From Pseudomonas phage Chuck, in sequence record OQ992557.1: DNA of 61,365 bases; one strand, 5' to 3'. Shown here piece after piece: positions 6,514-36,401 of this stretch. Position numbers and translations under genes: made by a program. The notes under the pieces are model-generated. The model saw only the letters and a program-made list of their open reading frames with translations. It ran no database searches and was not told the origin of the DNA. The stretch's first letter is position 1. Each line of letters opens with the position of its first letter.

Positions 6514-6543
6514 AGTATAGTGACGGGACCCGAAGAAGTAAAG
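6514..6543 (-). promoter_or_regulatory. conserved early promoter P1 (minus strand CTTTACTTCTTCGG-N8-CACTATACTTTCTTCAC; -35 TTTACT, 17-nt spacer, -10 TATACT)
   Basis: Plus-strand gtgaagaaagtatagtg...ccgaagaagtaaag. One of eight near-identical copies. Confidence 0.7.
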
Positions 6544-6559
6544 CCCCGCCGGTTGTCGG

Positions 6560-7444
6560 TCAGTCCTCCAGCACCGCGATCCGCTGGACAACGGTTTGGG
6601 CCTGGCCGCGGTACTCCGCGTGCTCCTTCACTGTGGCCTTGATCTTCAGCTCCTCGCCCTCCTCCGCGTAGAAGGCCCCGGACTTCGACACGAGGCAGGC
6701 CCCGGTCGCGCGGTCGATCATCGTGATGATGTGGACCGTCTCGATGCCGTAGCCGTTCCAGGCGTCACGGGCGAAGGTGTAGCGGCGCACCACGGTCACG
6801 TCGAAGGTCATGCGCTTCTTCGGCTCGCCCACGTACAGGTCGGGCTTCGGCTTCGGCAGGGCGAGGTGAGGGACCCGGCGGGCGACCTCCTGGGCGGTCA
6901 GGCGCATCAGGCCCCCTTCCTCGAAGTCCGGGAGGGTGTCGATCAACCAGCTGATGTAGCCCCGCGGGGCCTCGTGGAACTCCTTGCCCGCGTAGGGTCC
7001 GAAGGCGAACTTGCCGCCCAGGATGGTCTGGCGCTTCTCCTCCTCCTCCGCGGCCCGTTCCGCGGCCCAGCGGTCCTCGCGCTCCTTCCGCTCGCGCTCC
7101 CGGCGCTCCAGCTCCGCGGCGTTGGCGCGGTGAATCGCGTTCATTTCCTCGCGCAGGGAGTCGCGGGAGGTCGTGAGCTTCAGGCCCATGCGCTCAGAGG
7201 CTTCCTGGGCCTTCTCGAAGGCTTCGTCAGGGTCCTGGCTCAGGTTCTTCACGTGGTAGCTGCGGACCTCGAAGGAGCCCTGATACACGCCATTCACCAC
7301 GGCGTTGCCCATGGGGCCAGGACCCGGGACGGCCTTCAGCTCCGTCTCGCGGAGGGTGAAGAAGCAGCCCAGCTCCCCGACTCCGATGAACAGGGTGGGG
7401 ACGAAGGTGGAGGGGTTCAGGGTGCGGTTGTGGATGTTGTACAT
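6560..7444 (-). CDS. hypothetical protein (294 aa, central acidic coiled coil)
   Basis: ATG with AAGGAGCC RBS sitting 24 nt downstream of hairpin H1. Confidence 0.6.
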   Translation of the reverse strand: MYNIHNRTLNPSTFVPTLFIGVGELGCFFTLRETELKAVPGPGPMGNAVVNGVYQGSFEVRSYHVKNLSQDPDEAFEKAQEASERMGLKLTTSRDSLREEMNAIHRANAAELERRERERKEREDRWAAERAAEEEEKRQTILGGKFAFGPYAGKEFHEAPRGYISWLIDTLPDFEEGGLMRLTAQEVARRVPHLALPKPKPDLYVGEPKKRMTFDVTVVRRYTFARDAWNGYGIETVHIITMIDRATGACLVSKSGAFYAEEGEELKIKATVKEHAEYRGQAQTVVQRIAVLED

Positions 7445-7467
7445 GACGGGGCTCCTTTTCTTGGGTG

Positions 7468-7487
7468 GGGGAGGGCCTGAGCCCTCC
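7468..7487 (-). terminator. GC hairpin H1 (GGGAGGGC-CTGA-GCCCTCCC), terminator or attenuator-like, no U-tract
   Basis: Perfect 8-bp stem between the stop of 7496-7759 and the start of 6560-7444; a member of a reused hairpin family. Confidence 0.4.
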
Positions 7488-7495
7488 CGTGTCGA

Positions 7496-7759
7496 TCACA
7501 GCTGGCCGAACTTCCAGAGGGTCTGGCGACCTCCGCGAGGTCCGAAGCCGATCAGCTCCAGGGTGCCGTCCGCGCGGAGGACCATCATGTTGATCCGGCG
7601 AATCGCGCGGTCACCGGCGAAGGCCCGTGCGGCGCTGGTCTTGGCCTGCTGGAGGGTCGGCAGCTTCATGCGGTTCTGGACATCGCCCAGCGAGGCGAGC
7701 TGTTCCATGTCGATCAGTTCGCGGGCCGCGTGGGTCTGGGGCGGGAGGATCAGGCTCAT
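7496..7759 (-). CDS. hypothetical protein (87 aa)
   Basis: ATG 7759 preceded by the conserved leader AAATGGAGAAC; first gene after promoter P2. Confidence 0.55.
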   Translation of the reverse strand: MSLILPPQTHAARELIDMEQLASLGDVQNRMKLPTLQQAKTSAARAFAGDRAIRRINMMVLRADGTLELIGFGPRGGRQTLWKFGQL

Positions 7760-7798
7760 TTCAGTTCTCCATTTCTACAAGTTGTTCAACGTGAAGAA

Positions 7799-7828
7799 AG
7801 TATAGTGCCAATCACCCGAAGAAGTAAA
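7799..7828 (-). promoter_or_regulatory. conserved early promoter P2 (TTTACT-18-TATACT)
   Basis: Same 40-bp element as P1; sits directly downstream of hairpin H2. Confidence 0.7.
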
Positions 7829-7862
7829 GCCCCCTCAGACAACTTTTTTCGACCCGCGAGGA

Positions 7863-7882
7863 GGGAGGGCCGGAGCCCTCCC
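7863..7882 (-). terminator. GC hairpin H2 (GGGAGGGC-CGGA-GCCCTCCC)
   Basis: Identical 20-mer to H3 at 51439; placed 3' of gene 7891-8499 and 5' of P2. Confidence 0.4.
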
Positions 7883-7890
7883 GCTTCGTC

Positions 7891-8499
7891 TCACTTGCCT
7901 TCGGCTTCCCGGGCCTTCGCCTCAGCGGCGGCGATGATGATAGACAGCGGGGTCAGGGTGCCGTTCAGGTAGTAGAAGGCCCGGAGGAAGGTGGTGCCGT
8001 GCTGGTTGGTCACGTAGTGGACGTTGGCGTGGACCGGGAGCCCACCGAAGATGTCGTGGAGGCGGAGGGCGTTGTTGTACTGCTCCTGGCGCAGCTCCAT
8101 CAGGTCGCGGATGGACTTGGTCACGGCTTCGATCTTGGCGGTGTCGCTGGCGCGTTCGACCTTCACCACCGGGGCGGCCTTCACGGCGGCGCGGAAGGTC
8201 ACCAGGGCTTCGATCTGGGCGACGGTCGCGGCGGTCTGCGGGAACACGCGGAGGGCGAGGGCGGAGTGCTTGGCCTTCCAGTTGTGGGGGTAGTCGGCCA
8301 GGTTCCAGTACACGTCATCATGATCCGCTGTGCGGGCGTCGCGCTCGATGTCCAGGACCAGGCCGGTGATGTCGCGCTTCAGCAGCTCGAAGGCGCTGTT
8401 GAGGTCGCGGAGGGCTTCTTGTTGAGCGGCCTTGGAGGTGAAACCAGCCTCGAAGCGGGCGGTGGCGCGGTCGATGTAGAAGGAAGCGGTGCGGGCCAT
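7891..8499 (-). CDS. hypothetical protein (202 aa)
   Basis: Probable ATG at 8499 (MARTASFY...) after the GGAGAAC leader; the track's ATG at 8511 overlaps that RBS. Driven by P3. Confidence 0.55.
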   Translation of the reverse strand: MARTASFYIDRATARFEAGFTSKAAQQEALRDLNSAFELLKRDITGLVLDIERDARTADHDDVYWNLADYPHNWKAKHSALALRVFPQTAATVAQIEALVTFRAAVKAAPVVKVERASDTAKIEAVTKSIRDLMELRQEQYNNALRLHDIFGGLPVHANVHYVTNQHGTTFLRAFYYLNGTLTPLSIIIAAAEAKAREAEGK

Positions 8500-8545
8500 G
8501 ATGTTCTCCATTTCTGTGGTTGCCGTTCTTGTTGAACGTGAAGAA

Positions 8546-8574
8546 AGTATAGTGGGGGCTCCCGAAGAAGTAAA
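8546..8574 (-). promoter_or_regulatory. conserved early promoter P3 (TTTACT-17-TATACT)
   Basis: aagaaagtatagtgggggctcccgaagaagtaaag. Confidence 0.7.
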
Positions 8575-8599
8575 GCCCCCTCATACAACTTTCTTCGAT

Positions 8600-8791
8600 T
8601 CACGGCAACTTGTGGCGGTCCCGACAGGGCGCACAGACTCCTCCCACCAGCCTCCCGCTCCATTCGCCACACAGGTCACAGTCGCCCGGCTCCCCGGGCG
8701 GTATCTTCGCCGCGGCCTCCGCGATCCGGGCCACTTCGCGGTCCGTGTCGTGGAGGATGCGGTCATTGCTCAAGTCGATTTCGTCAGCCAA
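8600..8791 (-). CDS. TraR/DksA-family C4 zinc-finger protein (63 aa)
   Basis: CDLCGE...CAPCRDRH motif; probable TTG start 8 nt after an AAGGAGAA RBS. Confidence 0.5.
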   Translation of the reverse strand: MADEIDLSNDRILHDTDREVARIAEAAAKIPPGEPGDCDLCGEWSGRLVGGVCAPCRDRHKLP

Positions 8792-9356
8792 TCTTGGGTT
8801 CTCCTTCGGGGTTGCCCCGGAGGACGTTCAGGGCGCTCATGAGACAGATGATCTGGCGGCGGCAGTCCTCCAGGCTGGTGTGAACGGCTTGCGTCCCCTC
8901 CGGCTTCGACCAGCCCCGCTCCTTCGCCAGGTCATACACGGTGCGGGTGTCCCGGGCCATGGAGTATCCCCAGGGAATCGGGACGCCCGCCCGGCGATAG
9001 TAACCCTCAAGAATGGCGACGTCAAAGGACGGCCCCTGGGCCCAGACCCGCTTCAGGTCCGGGTACTTGCCCAACCAGCGGGCGAGGTCGGTCAGCGCGG
9101 AGCGCATCGCCTTCGGCGGGCGCTTGGGCTGGAGTCCGCCCTGGTCCCGCCAGAACTGGACCGTGGAGGCATCGACCTCGCCGCCCAGCATCAGGGCGCT
9201 GTGGAGGTCCACGTCCACCTCGAACAGGTCCGGCTTCACCAATCCGGTTCGGCTGTTGAACGGGATCGCCCCGACCTGAATGACCCCGGCGTTGGGGCCG
9301 GTCGCCATCGTCTCCAGGTCAATCATCACGCTGTCCATCGTGTTGTCGTCACTCAT
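8784..9356 (-). CDS. DnaQ-like 3'-5' exonuclease (DEDDh)
   Basis: IDLETM (Exo I) ... HTSLEDC (Exo III); AAGGAGAAG RBS. Confidence 0.7.
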   Translation of the reverse strand: MSDDNTMDSVMIDLETMATGPNAGVIQVGAIPFNSRTGLVKPDLFEVDVDLHSALMLGGEVDASTVQFWRDQGGLQPKRPPKAMRSALTDLARWLGKYPDLKRVWAQGPSFDVAILEGYYRRAGVPIPWGYSMARDTRTVYDLAKERGWSKPEGTQAVHTSLEDCRRQIICLMSALNVLRGNPEGEPKIG

Positions 9357-9357
9357 G

Positions 9358-9639
9358 TCACTTCTCCTTCTTCAGTTTGATCTCATTGAATCGTACAAAC
9401 TCTTGCCACACGGGGCATTCCTGGACCGACTCGCCGCCCTCCACCACTTCACAGTAGGGCACGGCCTCCGTCCGGTTGAGGCAGTTACAGTGGCGGCAGT
9501 CGCCGGTCCCATAGTGCGACTCCCACTGCTCCACGGCGATGAAGTAGCCCGAGCAGCGACCGCCTCCGAAGCGGTGCGGGAACCGATAGGCCCCGCAGGT
9601 GCAGACGTACTCCCCGCGGCGGGGTTTCCGGCGTGCCAT
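9358..9639 (-). CDS. hypothetical Cys-rich protein (93 aa)
   Basis: Multiple CxxC and HC pairs. Confidence 0.5.
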   Translation of the reverse strand: MARRKPRRGEYVCTCGAYRFPHRFGGGRCSGYFIAVEQWESHYGTGDCRHCNCLNRTEAVPYCEVVEGGESVQECPVWQEFVRFNEIKLKKEK

Positions 9640-10322
9640 CAGCGGAATTGATAGGGGTCGCGGTGGGGTTCGCCCAGGTCAAGGCGCGGTCCGCGGCGAT
9701 CCGGTCCGCTGATGTAGCTGACCCCGACCTGTCCGACCCGCTCATGAACCTCGTTGCGCACTCCCGGCAGCGGCGGTTCGCCTTCCGTCACGCGGTCGAT
9801 GTACCCTTGGGCACGGGCCAGGTTCAGCTCCGACCGGCGGCGGGCGTCCCGCTCCGCCTCCAGCTCCTTGCGGAACACCTCCCGCTCCTTGTCCAGCGAC
9901 CGGCGGGCCTCGTTGCGCTCGCCTTCGAGGCGTCCGGCGATCCCCTCCAGCTCCGCGATCCGGGCAGCGGCCTTGTCCAGAGCGGCTTGGAGGTTCGAGG
10001 CGACGATGTCCCGGGCCTTGAGCTGGTGATCCAGCCATTCGCGGAAGGTCGCCCCGAGGACGGAGGGCTGACCGTCCGTCCCGTCGCCGCGGTTGTACAG
10101 CATCATGGCGAAGTTGCCGATGTCCACGGGGTCGCCCTTCTCCAGGTGATCCAGCAGCATCACCGCGAGGGTGTCCAGTTGACACTGGTCGGGGTCGTGC
10201 CAACCGCCCCGGCCCTCCGCCCGCTTCTTCTCCAGCTTGCGGCGCATCGCGTCCGCGAAGTCAGCCACGCCTTGGTTGTCGATGAACTCAGCGGTGACGT
10301 CCGTCATGTCGATATGTTCCAT
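9639..10322 (-). CDS. hypothetical protein (227 aa, N-terminal helical domain plus coiled coil)
   Basis: ATG at 10322 (MEHIDMTDV...) with GGAGAA RBS. Confidence 0.5.
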   Translation of the reverse strand: MEHIDMTDVTAEFIDNQGVADFADAMRRKLEKKRAEGRGGWHDPDQCQLDTLAVMLLDHLEKGDPVDIGNFAMMLYNRGDGTDGQPSVLGATFREWLDHQLKARDIVASNLQAALDKAAARIAELEGIAGRLEGERNEARRSLDKEREVFRKELEAERDARRRSELNLARAQGYIDRVTEGEPPLPGVRNEVHERVGQVGVSYISGPDRRGPRLDLGEPHRDPYQFR

Positions 10323-10348
10323 GTCTGTTCTCCGTTTCTGTCGGGTTG

Positions 10349-10966
10349 TCAATCTTCGTCAGGCAGTCGCCATTCGTCCTTCTTCACCTTCTTCATCTTC
10401 GCCTTGCCCAACCAGTTCGAGGAGGCGAGGTGGAGGGCGTAGTCATGACACACCACCTGCCCGTCGATCAGGCCGAAGTTCTCCGGCTTCAGGTCGGTGA
10501 AGAAGTCGGGCAGCTCCTTCGGCAGTTCGCCGTGGGGCAGGGGTCGCGTCCGCTCCTGGATCAGGACGATACCACAGGGGCTGATGCGGCGACACGGGGC
10601 GAACCAGCGCGCCCAGGGGGTGAATTGGACCTCGTGCCACATCTGCCATTCCGCGACATTCTGGAAGGACTGCGCGGTGGTTTCGACCTTAGCCACAAGG
10701 GCGGTTTGTCCGTGGAGGGCATACACCTGGCGGGCGACTCCGAACCCCAGGCGGTCGCCCAAGAAGGTCCTGATGAAGTCGTTTTTCACCACGCTGCCCC
10801 ACTGTTCATGATCAAGTTCCAAGGGGTGTTTCTCCGGTAGGGGTTGTTGGTCGAAGCCCGGGGCCATCATCCCGGGCCAGGTGATCGGTCCCGACTCCGG
10901 CGGCGGGGCGGCGGGCGTCCGCCTGAACAGGCTCCGCAGCCAGCTCAGAACTCGCTCATGATCCAT
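10349..10966 (-). CDS. eukaryotic-like Ser/Thr protein kinase fold protein
   Basis: ATG 10966 (MDHERV...). Motifs: Gly-rich LGDRLGFGVARQVY, ALVAKVE (VAIK-like), catalytic loop TDLKPENFGL, DYA (DFG-like). Confidence 0.55.
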   Translation of the reverse strand: MDHERVLSWLRSLFRRTPAAPPPESGPITWPGMMAPGFDQQPLPEKHPLELDHEQWGSVVKNDFIRTFLGDRLGFGVARQVYALHGQTALVAKVETTAQSFQNVAEWQMWHEVQFTPWARWFAPCRRISPCGIVLIQERTRPLPHGELPKELPDFFTDLKPENFGLIDGQVVCHDYALHLASSNWLGKAKMKKVKKDEWRLPDED

Positions 10967-11108
10967 ATTCTCACTCCTTCGGTCTTGCGCATCTTGAATC
11001 GGAGGTTCCGGGCGTCCTGGCAGGCGCGCGAGTAGCCACCCACCACCTTCTTCGTCTGGAGGGTGCCGCCCGGGACGATCCAGCACAGCTCCCAGCTCCG
11101 GTCCTCCT

Positions 11109-11378
11109 TCAAGTTCCGGCCCTCATCCTGTCCACCGTCTCCTTGCCCAGGACCCGCTCCAGCTCCTCCCAGGAGGTCGCCCGCGAGCCGTCGCCGGTCG
11201 GGATGCCTTGGGCCGTCTCGCGCTGGTCCACGATAGCCTCCACGATAGCCTGGCGGAACAGGGCGAAGGCGAGAAGGCGGAGGCCCCCGTGGATCGCCGC
11301 GTCAAGGTTCACCGGCGGCAACCGCTCCGCCTTGGGCTTGTACGTCCCGTTGGGGCGCTTGTTCGGGTCTTGGTTCAT
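11109..11378 (-). CDS. hypothetical protein (89 aa)
   Basis: GGAGGG RBS. Confidence 0.5.
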   Translation of the reverse strand: MNQDPNKRPNGTYKPKAERLPPVNLDAAIHGGLRLLAFALFRQAIVEAIVDQRETAQGIPTGDGSRATSWEELERVLGKETVDRMRAGT

Positions 11379-11382
11379 GGCG

Positions 11383-11670
11383 TCAGCCCTCCTTCACGCA
11401 GAGGTCGATGATCAGCAGGTTGAAGCGGTCCGGGTCGCGCTCCTCGCGGATCGCCTCCCAGTGCCCGCCTTCGATCCGGCGCAGCTCCAGGCGGTAGTCC
11501 CCCGGCTCGCCCAGGAAGGCGAGCTGGTGTGCTTCCCCGGTCCAGGCGGCGCGCTCCGGGTAGGTGAGCTGGGTGGGCGAGTCCTTCACGATGTTCCCGC
11601 CCAGGCCCCGTCCGTGGAGTTCGCTCAGGAAGTCGCCCACGTAGGCTTCGACTTGGTCAAATGGTATCAT
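11383..11670 (-). CDS. hypothetical protein (95 aa)
   Basis: ATG 11670 (MIPFDQVEAY...) with GAGGA RBS; the longer track ORF is low-complexity GC artefact. Confidence 0.5.
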   Translation of the reverse strand: MIPFDQVEAYVGDFLSELHGRGLGGNIVKDSPTQLTYPERAAWTGEAHQLAFLGEPGDYRLELRRIEGGHWEAIREERDPDRFNLLIIDLCVKEG

Positions 11671-11672
11671 GG

Positions 11673-11969
11673 TCAGTCCTCGAAGGCCCCGCGGGCGGTT
11701 TGGCGTTGAATCTCTGCGAAGTGGCGCACGAGGCGAGCCCGGCGGAACTCCACCTGGCGGGCGACCGGGGTGCCGTTCAGAACTTCGTCCGCGGTGTGGC
11801 GTCCATACACGCTGTCCAGGTAGTTGCGGACCTCCTCCGGCTTCGCGGAGGGGATCGCTGCGGCAATCGCCTCGAAGGCCACGGCCCAAGCCTTGCGCGC
11901 GGCCTCCTCGCCCTTCTTCAGGGCGTAGGTTCCGAAGAAGCCATGGCCCGGGTTGTTCGTCTCGATCAT
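11673..11969 (-). CDS. hypothetical protein (98 aa)
   Basis: ATG 11969 after GGAGACAA. Confidence 0.5.
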   Translation of the reverse strand: MIETNNPGHGFFGTYALKKGEEAARKAWAVAFEAIAAAIPSAKPEEVRNYLDSVYGRHTADEVLNGTPVARQVEFRRARLVRHFAEIQRQTARGAFED

Positions 11970-11987
11970 CAATTGTCTCCGTGTTGA

Positions 11988-12317
11988 TCAGGGTTTGTCG
12001 TCATCCGGCTTCGGGAGGAGGGCGAGCAGCGCCCGGCGTCTCCACCACGGGAGTTCCTTCAGCTGGAGCGGTCGCGGTCCGGGAATCGCCAGGGCGGGCG
12101 ATCCGAAACGATGCGCCAGCGTGTCAAAATGGCGGCGCAGATCGGCTTCCAGGTAGTCCTCCACAAAATACTCCCGGCGCTGGACGCGGCACCGGACCCG
12201 CTCCGAGGCAAGGACGCCCCGGGCGATGACCAGGAACTCCTCCCAGTCCGCGACCGGAAGGCGTTGCCGGTACTCCTCGAACAGAACGGCCAGGGCCGCT
12301 TCGTCCAGGTCTTTCAC
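11988..12317 (-). CDS. hypothetical protein (about 109 aa)
   Basis: GTG start coupled to the upstream stop (GTGA) with GGAGGT RBS; the N-terminal 112 codons of the track ORF are Pro/Arg/Gly low complexity. Confidence 0.45.
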   Translation of the reverse strand: MKDLDEAALAVLFEEYRQRLPVADWEEFLVIARGVLASERVRCRVQRREYFVEDYLEADLRRHFDTLAHRFGSPALAIPGPRPLQLKELPWWRRRALLALLPKPDDDKP

Positions 12318-12790
12318 AGCTGACCTCCGTGGAGTTCCCCGAGGCGCTGATTCAGCCACGCGACCTCCTTGGGCAGGAGCTGTTCCTGGTGGTCCACGAG
12401 GTAGCGCAGGCGGCGCAACTGTTCCTGGTTCTCGTTGGACAGCTTCGCCACGTTGCTTTCGAGGCGCTTCAGCTTCGCGGGTACGTCCTTGGCGAGTTCC
12501 GCCATCAGCCGGCACTCCTCCCCGAAGGCGCGGAGGGCGTCCCGGGACGCGGCCACGGGGTCGATGTTGTCCCCGTAGTTGTTGCCCAGGTACTCCGCGC
12601 AAGCGGCTCCCGCCGTCCCGATCAGCTGGAGGAGGTGCTGCTGGCTCGCGCACTGGCCCGGGTCGATGTCCGTGGAGGACTTCAAGCCGGGGCGCTTCTG
12701 GCTGTACACGAGGACCGTCACTTGGTACTTGCGGGGGTCCTCCGGGTTGCGCCCGAGGCGGGCCTGGACGCCCTGGATGGTAGTGGTCAT
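12314..12790 (-). CDS. hypothetical coiled-coil protein (158 aa)
   Basis: ATG 12790 (MTTTIQGV...) with AAGGAGAA RBS. Confidence 0.5.
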   Translation of the reverse strand: MTTTIQGVQARLGRNPEDPRKYQVTVLVYSQKRPGLKSSTDIDPGQCASQQHLLQLIGTAGAACAEYLGNNYGDNIDPVAASRDALRAFGEECRLMAELAKDVPAKLKRLESNVAKLSNENQEQLRRLRYLVDHQEQLLPKEVAWLNQRLGELHGGQL

Positions 12791-13392
12791 GCCGGTTCTC
12801 CTTCGCACAGGGGGTTGGCTTTCCAGAAGGCGCGCAGCTCGCGGCCCAGGTAGATGTTCACGCCGTCCTGGCCCTCGAAGAAGCCCCCGGCCCGGAAGGT
12901 CGGCACAACGGCGTCCTGCGCCCCGGCGGCGATCCCGTCCGCGGATTGAGCCCAGTTCAGGGCTTGATCGGCGGAGTCGAAACCCTGCGCCGTGAAGAAG
13001 CTGCCGGAGTCGCTGATGATGTAGAACTTGTCCAACTCCATTTCCAGACCGCTTCCGGGGTCCAGGAAGGTTTCCACGTGCTGCATCTTCCCGGTCGGGC
13101 TCCGTCCCCAGGCGCGGTTGCGGTTCACGCTCATCTTGTAGTCCACCACGGTCTGGAGGTCCACGTCCAGCTTCTCCGCGACCTGGGCGAGCATGATGAA
13201 CACGTCCGCGCACTCCTTCTGGAGTTCCTGGACCAACTCCTGGTCCATGTCCGCGACCGGGACGGCGGCGACGGTAGCGAGGCCCGCGACCAGCTCCGCC
13301 ACCTCCACGTTCATCCGCGCGGCGACTTCCGCGGGGTGCTTCGGGCCGAAGGTGTCGTCAGCCCAGCGGGTGATTGATTCTTGGGTTTCCAT
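12787..13392 (-). CDS. MazG-like nucleoside triphosphate pyrophosphohydrolase with C-terminal extension
   Basis: ITRWADDTFG...EVAELV...ELQKECADVFIMLAQVAEKLDVDL...NRNRAW matches the MazG all-alpha NTP-PPase core. Confidence 0.6.
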   Translation of the reverse strand: METQESITRWADDTFGPKHPAEVAARMNVEVAELVAGLATVAAVPVADMDQELVQELQKECADVFIMLAQVAEKLDVDLQTVVDYKMSVNRNRAWGRSPTGKMQHVETFLDPGSGLEMELDKFYIISDSGSFFTAQGFDSADQALNWAQSADGIAAGAQDAVVPTFRAGGFFEGQDGVNIYLGRELRAFWKANPLCEGEPA

Positions 13393-13394
13393 AT

Positions 13395-13664
13395 TCAGTT
13401 GGTTCTCCGAGGTTCGCAAACAATAGTCTTGCCCAGGGGCCGCGACGGGTCTTGGCGGCACTCCAGGCGCTCAAACCGGGACGGGTCCGGCTTTCCTGCC
13501 TCCGCCGGTACGGTGACGCGGACCGGCGGGGCGAGACGGGGCGAGAAGCTGCCGACCTGCGCCCGGCGGACCGTCTCCTGGGCAGAGTACAGGGGGCGAT
13601 CCTCCGCTTGCGCCTGCGTGGCGAGCGGCAGCAGGACGGCCAGGGCGAGGGTCATCAGTCTCAT
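13395..13664 (-). CDS. small secreted protein (89 aa, signal peptide MRLMTLALAVLLPLATQAQA)
   Basis: ATG 13664 with AGGAG RBS; first gene after promoter P4. Confidence 0.5.
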   Translation of the reverse strand: MRLMTLALAVLLPLATQAQAEDRPLYSAQETVRRAQVGSFSPRLAPPVRVTVPAEAGKPDPSRFERLECRQDPSRPLGKTIVCEPRRTN

Positions 13665-13698
13665 GATCGGGCTCCTTCGGTTCGGGGTCGGTGAAGAA

Positions 13699-13727
13699 AG
13701 TATAGTCACGGACCCCGAAGAAGTAAA
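13699..13727 (-). promoter_or_regulatory. conserved early promoter P4
   Basis: gtgaagaaagtatagtcacggaccccgaagaagtaaag. Confidence 0.7.
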
Positions 13728-13731
13728 GTGG

Positions 13732-14073
13732 TCAGTGCTTCGAGGCCGTCATGGACTGGAGGAGGTCGCCCAAGGAGGGGCGGGCGTCCTCCGCCTCGCG
13801 CTTGCTCAGGAAGGCGCAGCCGTGGTCGTCCAGATAGCTCGCGTCCAGCTCCCACTCCCCCAGCTCCTCCATCGGGAGGTCCGCGGCGTTCATGAGCACC
13901 GGCCAGGCCCGGCTCATCTGCTCCTGGGCGTCCCGCCCGAGTTCGTTCAGTCGCTCCTGAAACTCGCGTTCCAGCTCCGCCTTCTGGGCGTGGGCTTGTT
14001 GGTGGATGCCGTGGACGGCCCGGGCGGCGGTCAGGGCGTCTCCGGTGAGACGGATGGTGGTCTTGCGGCTCAT
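13732..14073 (-). CDS. hypothetical protein (113 aa)
   Basis: GGAGAA RBS. Confidence 0.5.
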   Translation of the reverse strand: MSRKTTIRLTGDALTAARAVHGIHQQAHAQKAELEREFQERLNELGRDAQEQMSRAWPVLMNAADLPMEELGEWELDASYLDDHGCAFLSKREAEDARPSLGDLLQSMTASKH

Positions 14074-15248
14074 AGCGGTTCTCCGGTGATCTGTTCGCCC
14101 AAGGACACGATGGTGTCCATCAGGAAGTTCTGCATGGTGCGGGTTTCATCGTACAGCTGGTGGCGGAGGTGGATGAACTCCTCAATCAGCGTCCCGGCCA
14201 GCATCTTGGTCCCCATCATCAAGGTGCGCTTGCTGATGTAGATTTTGCCCTCATGCGCCCGGCCCAGGACTTCCTCGCCCAGGAACTCGCTGACAATGAT
14301 CGGGTAGTCCTGGACGGCGAAGCCCAGCCGCTCGCAGAAGCCCGCGGCCTTCTCCAGCCGGGTCCGTTCCAGCTCGCTCAGGCGCATCGGGGTCGCCTCC
14401 TCGTGGAGCTGGTCCATGATCCAGACCTGCGAAGCCTTCAGCGCGGAGCGGGACAGCGAGGAGTCGAAGCTGCGGGCGAGTTCGGAGACGGTCGCCAGGA
14501 AGGGCTTGGACGGCTCCACGCCCTCGAACTCCAGCGCATGCTCGAAGGTCGCCTTGGGCGCGGTGACGGCTTTCTTGATCAGGGGAGCCTGTTGGGACTC
14601 GCAGAGCCCGCGACGGACGGCGGCGCTGATGTCCCAGGACCACTTGATGGTCCGATCCTCCGTCAGGTCCACCTTCTTCTGGATGTTGTAGGTGAACTGC
14701 GAGGGGTTGTCCAGCCGGTAGGCTCGCACGCCCCGGTAGTACACGAAGTGCGACGGGCCGGGATGGATGTGGACGGCCTCGTGGCGCTCCAGAGGCTCGC
14801 TGGACAGGATGATGTCGGAGCGGGAGGCCCAGACATCCAGGAACTTCTCGCCCCGGACCACAATCACGGTTTCGTCCGCGGCGACTTCCGGGACCTCGCT
14901 GGCCTCGAACACTTCGCCCCGTTCGTCCATCGTGTTGCAGTACAGCTCGCGGAAGGCTTGCCACACTTCCCAGGTCTTGCCGACCTCCGTGGTGAAGCCC
15001 AGACGGCGGTTGTTCATCGTGACCACGTTGAAGTCATCGACCCGGACGCGATCCCGCTTGATGCCGAACTCCAGCTTGCGCTTCCCGGCGTGAATGGTGA
15101 TGTCGCAGCCCTCGCGGAGGAGGATGGCGATGGCGTACTTGAGGCCGGTCCCGAAGAAGCCGATGGCCCCGGGGTTCTCCTTCGAGCTGACCCCGAAGGT
15201 GGTGATGGACTTGGGGTCGATGACGCCCTTGTTGCGGAAGATGATCAC
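14070..15248 (-). CDS. hypothetical protein (about 392 aa) with a GHKL-ATPase-like glycine motif
   Basis: Probable GTG start (VIIFRNKG...) 8 nt after AAAGGAG. The motif GFFGTGLKYAIAILL is the only recognisable feature. Confidence 0.45.
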   Translation of the reverse strand: MIIFRNKGVIDPKSITTFGVSSKENPGAIGFFGTGLKYAIAILLREGCDITIHAGKRKLEFGIKRDRVRVDDFNVVTMNNRRLGFTTEVGKTWEVWQAFRELYCNTMDERGEVFEASEVPEVAADETVIVVRGEKFLDVWASRSDIILSSEPLERHEAVHIHPGPSHFVYYRGVRAYRLDNPSQFTYNIQKKVDLTEDRTIKWSWDISAAVRRGLCESQQAPLIKKAVTAPKATFEHALEFEGVEPSKPFLATVSELARSFDSSLSRSALKASQVWIMDQLHEEATPMRLSELERTRLEKAAGFCERLGFAVQDYPIIVSEFLGEEVLGRAHEGKIYISKRTLMMGTKMLAGTLIEEFIHLRHQLYDETRTMQNFLMDTIVSLGEQITGEPL

Positions 15249-15286
15249 GTTGTGACTCCTTTTCTCAGGGTTGTTGAAACAGAATC

Positions 15287-15652
15287 TTACTCCACCCACA
15301 CTCGCTCATAGCGGTCCGGGAGGGCTCCACACGATCCGGGGGAGCCGTCCGCGTTCACCACGCGCACACACTCCCGGGTCAGGTAGCTGATATGAACCTC
15401 CGGGCGGTCCAGATAGTCCGCAAAGGCCCCAGCCAGGCCCCAGAGCAGCAGGACGGCGAAGGCAAGCGGAGCAGCCCAGCGGGCGTGGTCACAAAACCTC
15501 GTCAGCGTCCCACGCATAGCCCCGAAGGCGATTGACTTCAAACTCGAATCGCAACGGGCTTCGCGCAGCAAGTCCTCGTGCGACTTCTTGTGGTTTTGCG
15601 CCGCGCGGGATCGGGTGCCCGTGTATGCGGCGGAAGGCTTCTTGTAGTTCAT
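15287..15652 (-). CDS. hypothetical membrane protein (121 aa)
   Basis: High GC3, AAGGAG RBS, one TM segment. Preferred over the overlapping ORF 15489-15710, which has low GC3. Confidence 0.5.
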   Translation of the reverse strand: MNYKKPSAAYTGTRSRAAQNHKKSHEDLLREARCDSSLKSIAFGAMRGTLTRFCDHARWAAPLAFAVLLLWGLAGAFADYLDRPEVHISYLTRECVRVVNADGSPGSCGALPDRYERVWVE

Positions 15653-15729
15653 GATGGGTCAGCTCCTTTCCAATCTCGAATCGCGGTGTCAGTATCTGGG
15701 GTTGGTTCATTTCTCAACTCGTGTGAAGA

Positions 15730-15758
15730 AGTATAGTGGGTCAATCCGAAGAAGTAAA
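15730..15758 (-). promoter_or_regulatory. conserved early promoter P5
   Basis: gtgaagaagtatagtgggtcaatccgaagaagtaaag. Confidence 0.7.
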
Positions 15759-15763
15759 GCGGT

Positions 15764-15979
15764 TCAGGTCAATTCCAGCGCGCGGCGGATTTCCCGCCGG
15801 ACCTGAAGGCGGGCGTTGAGGGCCGCGCGGTGGTCGGAGGAAGTCCGCGAGCACGTCACCATCAGGGGCTTCCCCCTCACGGTGAAGCGGACCTTGTAGT
15901 GTCTCCGGCCCAGCTCCACCGTGTAGGCGATCCCCGCCCCCTCCAGCTCCCGCTTCGTTGCTTCCAGCGTGTCGCTCAT
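15764..15979 (-). CDS. hypothetical protein (71 aa)
   Basis: Compact ORF coupled to the primase gene. Confidence 0.5.
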   Translation of the reverse strand: MSDTLEATKRELEGAGIAYTVELGRRHYKVRFTVRGKPLMVTCSRTSSDHRAALNARLQVRREIRRALELT

Positions 15980-15989
15980 GGGGGCGTCC

Positions 15990-22459: not shown

Positions 22460-22655
22460 CTTGTAACTCCTTCGTCAGTTCCCGGAGCCGGAGTGTCTGC
22501 TGGCGGTACAAGTACCCAAAACACCCGTGCTCCCCGTTCATCATATCTGTATGGACCTTGCGGAGGTGCGCAGCGAGTTCTTCCACCGTGTCGAAGGCGT
22601 AGAACTTCAGCTGCGGGTCCTCCGCCCAATCACGTCGCAGCTTCTCCAAGTCCAT
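22428..22655 (-). CDS. hypothetical protein (75 aa)
   Basis: Compact ORF in the operon. Confidence 0.4.
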   Translation of the reverse strand: MDLEKLRRDWAEDPQLKFYAFDTVEELAAHLRKVHTDMMNGEHGCFGYLYRQQTLRLRELTKELQDERERKASGR

Positions 22656-26672: not shown

Positions 26673-28115
26673 TCAGTCAATCTGCGTGATCGGGATGATC
26701 TTGCGCTCGCCGCCGTCCTCCTCCGGCGGGGTCGGTTCCACGATCTTCTTGAAGTCGGGCGAGCGCAGAGCCTTCGCCGCCCCGAACAGTTCCGAACCGC
26801 AGCGGGGCTTGCCCTCGTTGTCGTCCGCGCAGTGGAGACAGCCGGTGGGGGCGCACTCCTTGACCTCCTGGAAGGGCTGGCCCAGATCGGTCCGGGTGAA
26901 CATCGGGACGCGCTGGCCGTGGCACTGGTCCGCGGTGATCATTTCACGGCCCATCGAAAGCCAGGCCGGTTCGCCGGTTCCGGGCTTCCCGCGGCGGTAC
27001 TCATAGCACGTCGCGTAGGTCATGCCCAGCTCCGTCGCCCACTTCCGGTACAGCTGGTGGGCTTCGACCCGGTACGGCTCCGCGATGGTCTTTTGGGCTC
27101 CGGCCTGGTTCTCCGTGAACAGGTCCATGAAGGCTTTGGTGCGCTCCGGGCCGAACCGCTTGTGGAGACGTTCGATCATCGCCGGAGCCCAGCTGTAGCC
27201 CGCTTCCACAAACTTCACGATCACGTGGTTGTTGCCGACCGCGGCCAGGCGCTCGAACAGGTGGCGGATGTCGTCATGGGTGACGATCCCCGGGACCACC
27301 GGATTGACCTGAATGGACGTGTAGATGCCCTGACGGCGCAGCTCCGCGATTTCGTCAATGTGGTCCTGGAGGGAAATGGCCCCGGGGGACAACTTGTGCC
27401 AATCGCGGTCGTTGCCGGTGTTCAGCGACTTCTGGGCGTAGCTGTAGGGGTTCCGCTTCAGGAGGTCGATGGCCCAGGACGGGTAGCTGAGACGGCTCAG
27501 GAAGAAGATGGGCAGGCCCAACTCCACGAAGGCTTCCGCCCCCTGCTGGGTGTTGTGGTACACGTCCTCAATCGGCAGGAAGGGGTCCGTGAAGCTGGAG
27601 AAGTAGCCCGCGGCGGAGGTCCGGGACTTCGAGAGCATGTTGCGGACCTGCTCGCCGTAGTTCACCGGGACGCTGATGAGGCCGGTGCCGCGGTAGCCCC
27701 GGAACCCGCTGTTGACGTAGCAGAAGGCGCAACCCACGGTGCAGTAGCCCCCATAAGGCTCCGTCAGGATCGCCTCGCTGAAGCAGGGGCGGGCGCGGGA
27801 GCCTCGCTTGTCGTTGTGCTTGTCCTGGTACCAGCCCTGAAGTGGCTTGGCGTTCGGGATGCGGATGTGCGGGAGGTAGGTGACGTCATTGAAGCCAAGA
27901 TACACCTTGACCTCCTTCTTGTCGTCATCCTTCGCGTTGCGGACCATCCCCACCTTGGCCATGCGGAACTTCGCGCGCATGCCGGTCAGCGGGTCATCCT
28001 CCTCCTCGATTGGGCCCAGGAACTCCCGTTGGTTCGGGTCCGGGCGCATGAAATACTTGTAAGCCTCCTGAGCGGCTTCGCCGGTTTCTTCATTCAGCCA
28101 TGCTGCGTGGTCCAT
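26673..28115 (-). CDS. radical SAM enzyme (480 aa)
   Basis: CTVGCAFC = CxxxCxxC cluster; GAGGAG RBS; first gene after promoter P6. Confidence 0.75.
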   Translation of the reverse strand: MDHAAWLNEETGEAAQEAYKYFMRPDPNQREFLGPIEEEDDPLTGMRAKFRMAKVGMVRNAKDDDKKEVKVYLGFNDVTYLPHIRIPNAKPLQGWYQDKHNDKRGSRARPCFSEAILTEPYGGYCTVGCAFCYVNSGFRGYRGTGLISVPVNYGEQVRNMLSKSRTSAAGYFSSFTDPFLPIEDVYHNTQQGAEAFVELGLPIFFLSRLSYPSWAIDLLKRNPYSYAQKSLNTGNDRDWHKLSPGAISLQDHIDEIAELRRQGIYTSIQVNPVVPGIVTHDDIRHLFERLAAVGNNHVIVKFVEAGYSWAPAMIERLHKRFGPERTKAFMDLFTENQAGAQKTIAEPYRVEAHQLYRKWATELGMTYATCYEYRRGKPGTGEPAWLSMGREMITADQCHGQRVPMFTRTDLGQPFQEVKECAPTGCLHCADDNEGKPRCGSELFGAAKALRSPDFKKIVEPTPPEEDGGERKIIPITQID

Positions 28116-28142
28116 AGTTCAACTCCTCATCTATTGCGAAAA

Positions 28143-28171
28143 AGTCTAGTGCCTTACCCGGAAGAAGTAAA
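28143..28171 (-). promoter_or_regulatory. conserved-family promoter P6 with variant -10 (minus TAGACT), internal to the modification cluster
   Basis: ttgcgaaaaagtctagtgccttacccggaagaagtaaag; 17-nt spacing preserved. Confidence 0.55.
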
Positions 28172-28186
28172 GCACTATGAATTGGG

Positions 28187-29024: not shown

Positions 29025-29909
<885 letters not shown>

Positions 29910-30183: not shown

Positions 30184-30867
30184 TCAGTCGGCCAGGCGGG
30201 TCTGGCGGGCGTCAGCCTTCGGGGCGGACTTCAGCGGCTTGTGGGCCGGGATCGCGTGGCCTTCCGGGACCACGATGTGGAACCGCTCAGTGCCGTCCGC
30301 GGCGAAGGCGGAGCGGACCCCGTAGCCCTTCAGCTTCATGTCCCAGCCGAAGCCGGAGCGCACGGTGGCTTCGGTCCAGGGCTTGTTGCCGCCACTCAGG
30401 GCTTCGATCAGTTCAGCCATGGTCGCACCGTTCGGGCGGGACAGCATGTCCAGGAGCATGGCCTGCTTCGAGCCCTCGCGGCAGGGGATCGGGGCGTGGC
30501 CCGGGGCGGCCAGGTTGGTGCCGCGCGGGGCGCGGGCCTTCTTCTCCTCCGCGGACTTCGGAGCCTTCTGGGCCTTCGGAGCAGCGACGGGGGCGGGGGT
30601 TGCGGTTTCGTTCACGGTTTCGACCTTCTGGGGTTCGGCCTGCTCGTCAGCCTCAACTTCCGGGTGCGCTTCGGCATAACGCTGAAGCATCTTCCAGGTG
30701 CGGGCAATGGCGGTGGTCTTGTCGGCAAAGCGGCGGACGTTCGGGACGGACTCGCCGTTGCGGAAGGTGCCGATGACTTCGTTGTACAGCTCGACCAGGG
30801 CCGGGCCGGACAGCTCGCTCAGGGAGGCTTCGGTGTAGGCGACGTTGTTGAAGTTGATGGCGTTCAT
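30184..30867 (-). CDS. hypothetical protein (227 aa, central low-complexity linker, conserved C-terminal domain)
   Basis: AAGGAG RBS; first gene after P7. Confidence 0.55.
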   Translation of the reverse strand: MNAINFNNVAYTEASLSELSGPALVELYNEVIGTFRNGESVPNVRRFADKTTAIARTWKMLQRYAEAHPEVEADEQAEPQKVETVNETATPAPVAAPKAQKAPKSAEEKKARAPRGTNLAAPGHAPIPCREGSKQAMLLDMLSRPNGATMAELIEALSGGNKPWTEATVRSGFGWDMKLKGYGVRSAFAADGTERFHIVVPEGHAIPAHKPLKSAPKADARQTRLAD

Positions 30868-30918
30868 GGTAGGCTCCTTTTCTGGGGTTGAGGTGCGATC
30901 TTGTTCGACCGTGAGAGA

Positions 30919-30947
30919 ATCTTAACCCCAGCCCCCGAAGAAGTAAA
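30919..30947 (-). promoter_or_regulatory. conserved-family promoter P7 with variant -10 (minus TAAGAT)
   Basis: gtgagagaatcttaaccccagcccccgaagaagtaaag. Confidence 0.5.
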
Positions 30948-30966
30948 GTGGTTTGACTAAACTTTT

Positions 30967-31473
30967 TCAGGTCCCCGTCCGAAGGCCAACAACCGTTGGA
31001 CGGCGGAGGGCGAACCGTTGTACAACTTCTTCCCAGAAGGCCCGGGCGGTGTCCTCGTGCCCAGGCTTCCTGTACCAATGGTTGCGCCCCGAGGTGTGCG
31101 GAACCACAGCGACCTCGAAGCCCCAGCGATCATCCGCAAACCACTGGTGGAAGTCCAGGTGCTGGGCCGGATAGCCGAAAGCCTCTGCGACGTTCCGCCC
31201 AACGAGGATGACGTGCCGACCGCCCAACAAGGGCTTCATCGCGGCTGCAGCAATCCCCGCGTCCCGGGCGGGCCACTTGTCGTCCCGCTTCCAGCGCCCC
31301 GGGAAGGTGTGGAGCAGGTTGGTGCGGTCGAAGGTCTTGAGGTAGTCCTTGGGCGATAGGCCCGCCAGCTCCGCCAGACGCCCTCCCGCGGAGGACCGCG
31401 GGAGGGGAGCCAGGGGCCGGTCGGGGTCCGTGTTAGGTCCGGGCGCTTGGCCGATGAGTAGGGGCTTGTTCAT
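30967..31473 (-). CDS. uracil-DNA glycosylase superfamily protein (family 4/5-like)
   Basis: Motif A GQAPG and motif B VPHTSGRN; AAATGGAGGAAC leader. Confidence 0.6.
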   Translation of the reverse strand: MNKPLLIGQAPGPNTDPDRPLAPLPRSSAGGRLAELAGLSPKDYLKTFDRTNLLHTFPGRWKRDDKWPARDAGIAAAAMKPLLGGRHVILVGRNVAEAFGYPAQHLDFHQWFADDRWGFEVAVVPHTSGRNHWYRKPGHEDTARAFWEEVVQRFALRRPTVVGLRTGT

Positions 31474-33480: not shown

Positions 33481-33501
33481 ATCGTTGCTCCTGTTCTTGG
33501 G

Positions 33502-34695: not shown

Positions 34696-34717
34696 GATGA
34701 TCGTTCTCCGTTTCTGA

Positions 34718-34752
34718 TGAAAAGAAGGGGGCCACGAAGGCCCCCTGAAGGT
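34718..34752 (-). terminator. intrinsic terminator/attenuator between SSB-like gene and helicase (minus CAGGGGGCC-TTCGT-GGCCCCC-TTCTTTTC)
   Basis: 7-bp GC stem plus U-rich tract directly upstream of the helicase RBS. Confidence 0.55.
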
Positions 34753-34796
34753 ACGGCCCGAGGGGGCGGGCCGTCCGGGTCGGTCCTCCCGGTAGA

Positions 34797-35636
34797 TCAG
34801 AACACCGGCTTGCCGCCGCCTGCGCCCTGGGCTTCTTCGTCCGCGGAGCCCGGAGCCTGCGACTCATAGGCAGCGCGGGCCTTGCCCTGCTCGATCATCG
34901 ACTTGATGTTCACGGCGGACTGGAACAGCGGGTCATCGGGCAGGAGGCGAGCCTGTTGGGCGTTCTCGCCGTCGAAGGCGATGGCGTCCCAGTTGAAGAA
35001 CTGGCCCTTGTTGTTCTTCTCGCTCACGGTCTTGAGGCGGTAGCGGTGGGCGAACAGCGGAGCCGGAATGCGGCGACCGTCCGGCAGCGGAATCTGGATG
35101 GTCTTGGCCTTGGTCATCCAGCCCTTGTACTTCTTGATCTTCGTGGAGCTGAAGGCCAGGACCGCTTCCGAGGCGTTGCCGTCATCATCCAGCGCGATGC
35201 CGTACACATAGAAGGTTTCGATCAGCTCGTTGCCGTCCGGGGTGCTGTACTTGCCATACTCCGCGGACGCTGCCTTGGCGTGGTTCACCAGATCGCTGTT
35301 GACTTCGTGGATGCCCACGAAACCGCCGCCCGCATCGCGGGGCTTCCACTCCACGTACACGTGCTGGGTGGTCGCCGGGACGAAGGCGATGCCCTTCTTG
35401 CCGTCCCAGACTTCGCCGGTCACGGTGTTCAGGATCATGCCCTGGCGCAGGCTGTCGTTCTCCTGGAGCTGCGGGCTGAGGGCCTGAAGAATCTGGAGGA
35501 ACGGGATGCTGTAGTCATCGCTGGTCTGGTTCTCGAAACCCGCGCCCGCGTAGTCGGCATATGCGCCATACTCCGCCATTGCGGTGTTCTGTTCCTTCAC
35601 TGCGACATCGGTGGTCTTGCTATCGGTCTTGGCCAT
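34797..35636 (-). CDS. ssDNA-binding protein, T7 gp2.5-like (putative)
   Basis: ATG 35636 (MAKTDSK...). Acidic Gly-rich tail ending in Phe. Located beside the helicases. Confidence 0.4.
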   Translation of the reverse strand: MAKTDSKTTDVAVKEQNTAMAEYGAYADYAGAGFENQTSDDYSIPFLQILQALSPQLQENDSLRQGMILNTVTGEVWDGKKGIAFVPATTQHVYVEWKPRDAGGGFVGIHEVNSDLVNHAKAASAEYGKYSTPDGNELIETFYVYGIALDDDGNASEAVLAFSSTKIKKYKGWMTKAKTIQIPLPDGRRIPAPLFAHRYRLKTVSEKNNKGQFFNWDAIAFDGENAQQARLLPDDPLFQSAVNIKSMIEQGKARAAYESQAPGSADEEAQGAGGGKPVF

Positions 35637-35778
35637 GGTGTGGCTCCTTCGGTTCAATGTGAGCGGGTCGATTGGGCCCCCGGTCGAATAGCCCTGCCGT
35701 CTCACCGGCTGTACCCGCTGTCACCCGCGGGGCGGTTCGGTCGGGAGGAAGGCCCGGGGCCGTCCTCCGGCATTCTGG

Positions 35779-36324
35779 TCACACTTCGATCTTGGACACG
35801 CGCTGACGATGGACCCCGAACAGGTCCAGGGGGACTTCCTCGCCTTCACGCAGCTTCTCGCGGACGAAAGCGGCAAGGGTCGAAGGATGGACGCTGGCGT
35901 TGTCGTCCACCTCGAACTCGTCCGCGAGACGCTGGCGCAGTTCGTCAGCCTTCTCGTCCTCGCCCTTGCCGAATGCGACGGCGACCACGCGCTTGATCAT
36001 CGCGGCGTGGCCGTTCTGCTTGAGCCAGGCGAAGGCGAGCGGGGCCTTGGCCTTCGGGATGCTGGCGCGGATCGTCTCGTCAATCTTGATCTTCAGGCCG
36101 GTGGTGGTCTTGAACTCGCCAATGCCGATCTGGTCCATGAGTTCGGGCACCTGGCGCTCTGCGATGTCGCGGAGTTCTTCGCGGGCCTTGTTGAGCTGGG
36201 CTTCGAGGTCTGCGACCTTCGACTGGGCAGCGGCCTGTTGTTCGGCCAGCTGAGTGAGTTGGCTCAGTTCGCCACCGGCGGTCTGAGGTTGGACATAGTC
36301 CAGGTATGCGTTTTCACTTGACAT
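35779..36324 (-). CDS. hypothetical protein (181 aa, coiled coil)
   Basis: ATG 36324 with GGAGAA RBS; first gene after P8. Confidence 0.5.
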   Translation of the reverse strand: MSSENAYLDYVQPQTAGGELSQLTQLAEQQAAAQSKVADLEAQLNKAREELRDIAERQVPELMDQIGIGEFKTTTGLKIKIDETIRASIPKAKAPLAFAWLKQNGHAAMIKRVVAVAFGKGEDEKADELRQRLADEFEVDDNASVHPSTLAAFVREKLREGEEVPLDLFGVHRQRVSKIEV

Positions 36325-36372
36325 GTGATTCTCCGTTTCTTCGGTGAGGGGGTATCCCAATCACGCTGAAGA

Positions 36373-36401
36373 AGTATAGTCGGTCAATCGGAAGAAGTAA
36401 A
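36373..36401 (-). promoter_or_regulatory. conserved early promoter P8
   Basis: gctgaagaagtatagtcggtcaatcggaagaagtaaag. Confidence 0.7.

Follow-up and report, generated by a model that had tools for sequence, protein, structure and literature searches.

The YuA/M6-like phages of Pseudomonas carry a conserved family of promoter elements that is already known. According to the RefSeq record of phage YuA and to Putzeys et al. (2024), the repeat was described by Ceyssens et al. (2008, J Bacteriol 190:1429), and RefSeq NC_010116 marks five copies of it (7722-7749, 10500-10527, 22639-22666, 29058-29085 and 31098-31125) with the note 'putative sigma70 promoter requiring phage-encoded cofactor'. Oxford Nanopore Technologies (ONT)-cappable-seq in YuA (Putzeys et al. 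2024, microLife, PMC10914365) found nine promoters with a common motif that are described as unlike those of bacteria; the motif is named 'phage promoter' in that paper, and its authors infer that further factors encoded by the phage are required. Here, we examine the genome of Pseudomonas phage Chuck (sequence record OQ992557.1), whose whole stretch of 61,365 nucleotides (nt) is called the window in the following. An earlier note on this DNA had pointed out eight promoter-like elements on the minus strand, with hexamers resembling those of sigma70 promoters and with an internal direct repeat. We find that all eight exist and that they are this phage's copies of the known YuA/M6-like promoter family; given the YuA annotation and the mapped start sites, the finding is thus a rediscovery.

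The window is a Yuavirus, that is, a YuA/M6-like siphophage of Pseudomonas aeruginosa, with 96-99% identity over kilobases to PaTs-2, PAE1, LKO4, M6 and about 50 others, and its orientation is reversed relative to the YuA record. We name each copy by the start of its TTTACT hexamer: 6542, 7828, 8574, 13727, 15758, 28171, 30947 and 36401. The element has the same motif and orientation as the repeat of YuA, in the same genus, and six of the eight copies also have the same position, being orthologous to the YuA copies at 2878, 7723, 10501, 22640, 29059 and 31099. Five of these six correspond to start sites in Table S3 of Putzeys et al. (bioRxiv supplement), namely 36401 to P006 (2914), 30947 to P008 (7758), 15758 to P010 (22676), 8574 to P012 (29094) and 6542 to P013 (31134). 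At each of the five YuA sites the upstream sequence is the element and transcription starts 7-8 nt after TATACT (PMC10914365, Table S3), which bears out both the promoter reading and the start-site distance that had been predicted from the letters. The sixth copy, 28171, is the orthologue of the YuA repeat at 10501 (10500-10527), which has no start site in the ONT-cappable-seq table. Copies 7828 and 13727 are additional to those of YuA, with no counterpart there, and both are situated on discrete insertions; copy 30947 has TAAGAT where its orthologue P008 has TATACT. In the LKO4 record, the orthologue of copy 13727 carries a promoter annotation.

The eight copies are co-oriented on the minus strand and read C-TTTACTTCTTC-(G/C)G, a variable filler and (cac)TATACTT. 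Six copies have TATACT as their -10 hexamer, and the other two have TAGACT (28148-28143) and TAAGAT (30924-30919); a TAnnnT -10 stands at the correct distance in all eight. The spacer between the hexamers measures 17 nt in every copy but 7828, where it measures 18 nt. These hexamers, spacers and variants agree with the earlier note, whose positions for the copies (6514, 7799, 8546, 13699, 15730, 28143, 30919 and 36373) mark where each -10 hexamer has its lowest coordinate. Their number is far above chance. The pattern TTTACTTCTTC-N14-TANNNT, with up to two mismatches, has seven minus-strand matches against 0.05 expected, and none of 100 shuffles reached seven; the eighth copy, 30947, came from a separate listing of TTTACTTCTTC-like words. 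TTTACTTCTTC is also the top 11-mer of the whole window, with eight copies, and across the window TTTACT occurs nine times on the coding strand and never on the opposite one, while TATACT occurs ten times on the coding strand versus twice on the other. The consensus with eight free positions (N8) that had been proposed for the element does not hold literally: with up to three mismatches it matches one copy only, 7828 (7791-7829), since all other copies have one base less in their filler. The direct repeat TACTT(T)CTTC inside the element, with its halves 23 base pairs (bp) apart, does exist: two copies show both halves exactly, four have a 1-nt insertion, and in both copies with a variant -10 the repeat is degenerate.

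The called genes of the window are all on the minus strand, every copy of the element points into a gene, and the distance from predicted start site to start codon is 21-70 nt for all eight copies, on the coding strand. That the copies are always intergenic is correct for seven of them; the exception is copy 36401, whose -35 box overlaps the last codons of the open reading frame (ORF) 36384-36737. The leader AAATGGAGAAC, which had been tied to the element, turns out to be incidental. It lies downstream of three of the eight copies only (6542, 7828 and 8574), and GAAATGGAGAA also stands 5' of three genes that have no element (starts 60691, 26618 and 25016); the leader is therefore the phage's general Shine-Dalgarno context.

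We propose that the elements are probably promoters of the host RNA polymerase with a sigma70-type -10, the extended upstream box of which is read by an infection-specific determinant. The host RNA polymerase would initiate 7-8 nt past the sigma70-type TATACT, as shown in YuA and inferred for this phage by orthology. The 14-bp block C-TTTACTT(C/T)TTC-(G)G occupies the place of the -35 and would not be simply a site for sigma70 region 4. Instead, this lineage-specific box very probably needs to be read by, or together with, an infection-specific determinant, which is probably a phage-encoded protein. Such an architecture would resemble that of phage middle promoters that depend on an activator or an appropriator, and the copies would divide the half of the genome that serves replication, DNA modification and host takeover into a series of short transcription units. 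The suggestion in the earlier note that the element might also be a binding site for a phage regulator is in line with the cofactor remark of the YuA RefSeq record.

Two described systems help to place this proposal. In T4, middle promoters are served by AsiA/MotA sigma appropriation, and they combine a MotA box, TTTGCTTTA, centred near -30 with a sigma70 -10. Like them, the elements have a TAnnnT -10 and a conserved T-rich box other than TTGACA in place of the -35, and according to the YuA reports they are silent without phage factors. TTTACTTCT agrees with the MotA box TTTGCTTTA at six of nine positions, but it begins at the -35 position and lies within the longer 14-bp block. Unlike the T4 middle promoters, the elements have a 14-bp box and a conserved flank next to the -10, and Pfam scans of about 50 early-region proteins find no MotA or AsiA. 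The resemblance is functional only and does not mean membership. The second system is an alternative motif of Pseudomonas phage 14-1, which possibly depends on the RNA polymerase-binding protein gp12 (Putzeys 2024, PMC10914365). It is likewise phage-specific, located at mapped start sites and inactive in a reporter without phage; unlike the present element, it has a CTGGG core near the start site and no sigma70-like hexamers, and the two sequences are unrelated.

Does the element need more than host sigma70? It is possible, but unlikely, that the copies are ordinary strong host sigma70 early promoters, that the inactivity reported for them was produced by the plasmid assay itself and that their conservation reflects descent together with tuning of promoter strength. 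The hexamers and their spacing do fit a plain sigma70 promoter, as the earlier note held. TTTACT-17/18-TATACT matches the consensus at 9 of 12 positions (TTTACT 4/6, TATACT 5/6, where at least 4/6 each and a spacer of 16-18 nt are expected), and the start lies at the canonical distance. A sigma70-pattern scan of 3000-16500, which took in five copies of the element (the remaining three, including both with a variant -10, are situated elsewhere), gave eight promoter-like sites against 1.1 expected. The tract AAAAAAGTTG lies at about -56 to -47 in three window copies (8574, 7828 and 30947, with AAAAAG in the last) and resembles a distal UP element, the UP-like A-tract itself being at about -56 to -51. 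The genes downstream include ardA and DNA-modification genes, which are typical early functions. In YuA, the hexamers of P014 (TTGGCT-17-TATACT) score just as high, and this site, which is classed as sigma70, is recorded in Table S3 as validated in the 2008 assay.

The pattern of conservation argues against that explanation. Conservation was counted base by base over 27 copies from the window and its relatives, and over 37 copies for position 3 of the -35-like hexamer. The constraint is not confined to the hexamers. A C directly precedes TTTACT in 26 of 27 copies; the block then runs on through TTCTTC-(G)G, whose second G of GG is likewise kept in 26 of 27; a T follows the -10 hexamer directly in 26 of 27, and position 5 of this hexamer is C in 24 of 27. 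The filler between the conserved blocks is variable. Conserved bases reach 8 bp past the -35 hexamer and 4-5 bp past the -10 hexamer, so that the blocks measure 14 bp and about 10-12 bp rather than 6 bp. In addition, position 3 of the -35-like hexamer is T in 37/37 copies and G in none, though the search patterns would have accepted G and a single T-to-G change would improve the match to sigma70. Thus, a -35 drifting around TTGACA, as expected for a sigma70 promoter, is not seen in these 37 copies. The remarks in Table S3 also record 'no activity detected' for P008, P010, P012 and P013 in a phage-free promoter assay, and the assumption that host holoenzyme alone is sufficient is accordingly unsupported.

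The element is not confined to this phage and YuA. There are six copies in Bordetella phage MW2 and seven in Stenotrophomonas phage Sonora, always co-oriented with genes, and four metagenomic relatives (48-65% guanine plus cytosine (GC), marker protein 50-66% identical) carry it as well, all four with one copy in the gap between the primase gene and the gp28-like gene. In Sonora, the word ACCGTTCGTCGG occurs seven times, several of them about 20-30 nt upstream of the TTTACTTCTTC box, which suggests an extra upstream element specific to that phage. A scan of IMG/VR with TTTACTTCTTC-N12-13-TANNNT returned 120 matches, which are mostly single, chance-like and in unrelated contigs, the pattern being too loose; the full element appeared in the M6 contig only.

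A further argument comes from Pseudomonas phage Ab18 (Bradleyvirinae), which is syntenic and also infects P. aeruginosa; the element motif was not found there. At orthologous gaps, Ab18 has another box, CTTGCCTTTTGCC...cAGAAT. This family reads CTTGCCTT(T/G)TG(C/T)C, then 9-10 nt, then cAGAAT, and its promoter-like copies lie in intergenic gaps at 8162, 8273, 20975, 23889, 25938 and 37497, two of them orthologous in position to window copies 30947 and 15758. The two families are alike in using orthologous intergenic gaps and in joining an upstream box (13 bp in Ab18) through a variable filler to a -10-like hexamer, sometimes with the same upstream AAAAAGTTTG tract, and a AAAAAAGTTG-type tract also precedes some Ab18 boxes; they differ in the box itself and in the -10, cAGAAT. 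We know of no published description of the Ab18 box family and of no start-site data for it. Since the same host meets a different conserved box, the comparison argues that the extended box is set by the phage lineage and not by host sigma70.

Several points weigh against the proposed explanation and have to be considered. First, all functional attribution in this genome is transferred from YuA. Second, a negative plasmid assay, such as that reported for YuA through Putzeys 2024 and RefSeq, can have trivial causes. Third, antirestriction and DNA-modification genes are expected to act very early, before new phage proteins are made, which argues against a requirement for such a protein; a literature search found no time-resolved per-gene expression data for YuA. 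Fourth, none of the start sites listed for YuA belongs to the orthologue of the TAGACT copy. Fifth, no Pfam match to a sigma factor, MotA or AsiA was obtained among about 50 early-region proteins, which are essentially all the uncharacterised ones. It is because of the early-type functions downstream that we keep two rivals, the plain sigma70 promoter with an assay artefact, described above, and an explanation based on modified DNA.

In this second rival, the T-rich boxes would bear hypermodified thymidines of the 5-(2-aminoethyl)uracil type in virion DNA and in replicated phage DNA, the host RNA polymerase, by itself or helped by a factor, would use the promoters efficiently in this form only, and unmodified plasmid copies would be silent. 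The determinant would then be the hypermodified thymidine itself, and DNA modification would be a positive signal that tells phage from host DNA. We regard both the explanation and this form of the determinant as improbable, somewhat more so than the plain sigma70 promoter. The window does encode a complete set of hypermodification enzymes: a thymidylate-synthase-like enzyme, a 5-hydroxymethyldeoxyuridine (5-hmdU) DNA kinase, an amino acid:DNA transferase, a pyridoxal-phosphate (PLP) enzyme, a radical SAM protein and Nmad5. In M6, up to half of the thymidines are reported as modified (PMC8989533), and restriction-resistant sites are enriched for TG/TC dinucleotides (PMC6449724); the authors of the latter state that the effect of the modification on promoters was not studied. 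No other conserved words of this 65% GC genome are as rich in T as the conserved blocks, which contain repeated TC steps, and a modification signal would reconcile immediate-early functions with inactivity on plasmids. The subfamily on the Ab18 side, with its different box, presumably has a different modification chemistry as well, as in PaMx11-type phages. Against this stand the consideration that modified bases in the -10 non-template strand could equally impair recognition by sigma70 and the metagenomic relatives, which retain the motif and may differ in modification chemistry. A promoter read with the help of an infection-specific determinant, probably a protein, remains our preferred explanation.

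Some copies of the element coincide with other features, which raises the question of whether it is a promoter at all. Two copies, 8574 and 6542, have their -35 box enclosed in a GC-rich stem, after which comes a U-rich tract. The hairpin of copy 8574 has the stem GGGGGC/GCCCCC (-18.5 kcal/mol, z -2.8) and that of copy 6542 reaches -14.8 kcal/mol (z -2.2); both have 9-nt loops and an interrupted U-rich tail. In the YuA orthologue of copy 8574, the termination site T013 (29082) lies inside the element, 12 nt upstream of the start P012. The hairpins and T013 suggest that these two copies are compact terminator-promoter modules, in which the -35 box would sit in the loop of a terminator-like hairpin and transcription may stop and restart. 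As a family feature, the -35-box hairpin was rejected, being confined to two orthologue groups with a borderline permutation result over the 27 copies (p ~0.05); three other copies tested for a hairpin showed no difference from shuffles.

Other copies lie at the borders of exchanged DNA. When compared with YuA and MW2, copy 13727 stands out as a clean insertion of 44 bp; about 30 Yuavirus records have it, and YuA and four others lack it. Copy 7828 heads an insertion of about 460 bp (7830-7371) with an 87-amino-acid gene, and this segment is 88% identical to Bordetella phage MW2, versus 73-79% for its flanks. From these two insertions, copies of the element coincide with the boundaries of exchangeable cassettes. 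T4-type phages reportedly have comparable mobile regulatory cassettes, called promoter-early stem-loop (PeSL) cassettes. The likeness lies in a repeated promoter, sometimes with a hairpin, that flanks small accessory genes in a plastic region and stands at insertion or cassette boundaries; unlike the YuA copies, which are reported to be inactive without phage, PeSL promoters are host-recognised and early. Judging from the two indels, the element may have a role in recombination.

A reading of the element as mainly something other than a promoter, whether a site for a regulator, an operator, a terminator or a hotspot of recombination with an accidental likeness to a promoter, could draw on the two stable hairpins with their U-rich tracts and the mapped 3' end in a YuA orthologue, on the direct repeat formed by the two halves, and on the copies that border insertions and cassettes. 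It is nevertheless highly improbable and has largely been refuted by the YuA start-site data, with cap-tag-enriched primary 5' ends at a fixed distance from five YuA copies. The hairpin is missing from most copies, and all copies are co-oriented with genes and close upstream of a start codon.

Candidates for a phage protein that would read the upstream box were sought in the early region. By Pfam, no phage RNA polymerase or sigma-like gene was found among the early-region proteins. One nominal candidate is a gp25-like protein of 120 amino acids (18414-18776, minus strand) with two helix-turn-helix (HTH) motifs (HTH_31/HTH_3, with weak similarity to sigma70 region 4). Its gene lies directly upstream of the primase gene, a position kept in every relative examined, including Ab18 and the four metagenomic contigs; homologues of this HTH protein thus occur in Ab18, which is without the motif. 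Another nominal candidate is a DksA-like zinc-finger protein of 63 amino acids (8600-8791), just upstream of copy 8574. Sequence searches against the PDB were uninformative for the nominal candidates.

A third protein, of 392 amino acids (14070-15248, minus strand), has a suggestive phyletic pattern: among the compared phages, it is common to the motif-bearing ones only. It is 90% identical to its homologue in Bordetella phage MW2, is among the best conserved proteins of the genome, and has 3065 homologues in phage-like contigs and no match to a Pfam family. In a fold search with its AlphaFold model (pLDDT 88.7), weak matches to GHKL proteins (Hsp90/GyrB/MutL) cover the whole chain, and minigluzincin (selecase) metallopeptidases match over about 100 residues; the model suggests a GHKL-type domain plus a small minigluzincin-type domain. 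As a cofactor this protein was rejected, for its fold matches are not transcription-factor-like.

The copies and the genes behind them, all on the minus strand, are as follows. Copy 6542 (6507..6543) consists of TTTACT at 6542-6537, a 17-nt spacer and TATACT at 6519-6514, with the predicted start at A 6507. It stands before the gene for an ArdA-type antirestriction protein of 137 amino acids (6067..6480; Pfam PF03230, E 3.7e-28) and further genes. Copy 7828 (7792..7829), with its 18-nt spacer, has TATACT at 7804-7799 and a predicted start at 7792; it is followed by the gene for an uncharacterised protein of 87 amino acids (7496..7759), 93% identical to a protein of Bordetella phage MW2, and then by a gene for 294 amino acids. 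Copy 8574 (8539..8575) has TATACT at 8551-8546 and a predicted start at A 8539 and leads into a gene for an uncharacterised homologue of YuA gp42 with 202 amino acids (7891..8499). The earlier note had assigned a single small gene to each of these three copies. This is right for copy 8574, the only copy with one gene before the next copy, and wrong for 7828 and 6542, behind which more genes follow.

Copy 13727 (13692..13728; TATACT 13704-13699, predicted start 13692) precedes a gene for a YuA gp31 homologue of 89 amino acids with a hydrophobic N-terminus (13395..13664). Copy 15758 (15722..15759; TATACT 15735-15730, predicted start A 15722) precedes that for an uncharacterised YuA gp28 homologue of 121 amino acids (15287..15652), and all relatives examined keep this site, which has the primase/gp27-like genes on one side and the gp28-like gene on the other. 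The variant copy 28171 (28136..28172), with its -10 TAGACT, is possibly weak or conditional; the gene after it encodes a radical-SAM protein of 480 amino acids (26673..28115) and heads the 5-hmdU kinase and thymidine-hypermodification genes. The other variant, copy 30947 (30912..30948; -10 TAAGAT), stands before the gene for a DUF3489 protein of 227 amino acids, a YuA gp08 homologue (30184..30867), past which the amino acid:DNA transferase and PLP-enzyme genes lie. Thus, two copies head thymidine-hypermodification genes and one the antirestriction gene. Finally, copy 36401 (36365..36402; TATACT 36378-36373, predicted start near 36365) is followed by the gene for a DUF7307, Pam3 gp33-like protein of 181 amino acids, homologous to YuA gp04 (35779..36324).

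The two large non-coding regions of the window (3109-3774 and 38440-38867) hold further repeats and promoter-like sites. An isolated -35-like box, CTTGACTTTTTACTTTTTCGG, lies at 3355-3331 on the minus strand, in the non-coding region at 3.1-3.8 kb, with no -10 partner. Its orthologue at YuA 33252 has no listed YuA start site, which suggests that the upstream box alone is insufficient. A second repeat family of about 190 bp and 80% identity, at 3392-3565 and 38606-38782 on the plus strand, has one copy in each of the two regions, oriented against all genes; its identical core of 52 bp consists of TTTATATAT, (TTC)5-6 and then TTAACTTACTTAACTTACTTACCTTA. The copy at 38.6 kb is the orthologue of the YuA start P002 (612, minus strand), which is labelled 'phage promoter', and would yield a short antisense or non-coding RNA ending at a hairpin near 38806-38866. 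This long hairpin, GCGCTTGGGGT...ACCCCAAGCGC, with the half-element CTATACTTCTTCAG on the plus strand in its interior, is orthologous to the YuA termination sites T003/T004; as these are on opposite strands, it is probably a bidirectional terminator. The word CCAAGCGCA (often TAACCTAAGCGCA) recurs on both strands at 3553-3568, 3630-3665, 38515-38526, 38766-38780 and 38855-38866 and may serve as a binding site, either of a regulator or in replication or packaging; the non-coding regions of Ab18 have the analogous word AACCTAAGTCGC.

TATACT without the TTTACTTCTTC box occurs on the minus strand at 38478, 58573 and 3204, at orthologues of the YuA starts P003, P016 and P014. P003 serves a helicase gene and P014 is the site classed as sigma70; P016 belongs to the 5' untranslated region of the gene for the major capsid protein, from which a conserved candidate for a non-coding RNA has been reported (PMC10914365). 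Nearly every coding-strand TATACT in this GC-rich genome is a mapped or likely promoter -10.

In annotation, the eight sites may confidently be marked as promoters, together with their predicted starts, in this phage and in about 60 related Pseudomonas phages that are candidates for therapy. The interest that remains lies in the determinant that licenses these promoters during infection, and the present comparison makes the cofactor remark of 2008 experimentally specific. The clues gathered are the TTTAC core, invariant across hosts and GC contents, the other box in a sister subfamily that infects the same host, and the promoters that head antirestriction and hypermodification genes. If a new factor of the sigma-appropriation type, or else the modification of the DNA, turns out to be the determinant, it would be generally interesting with regard to the control of phage transcription, and it could supply infection-specific promoters for synthetic biology in Pseudomonas.

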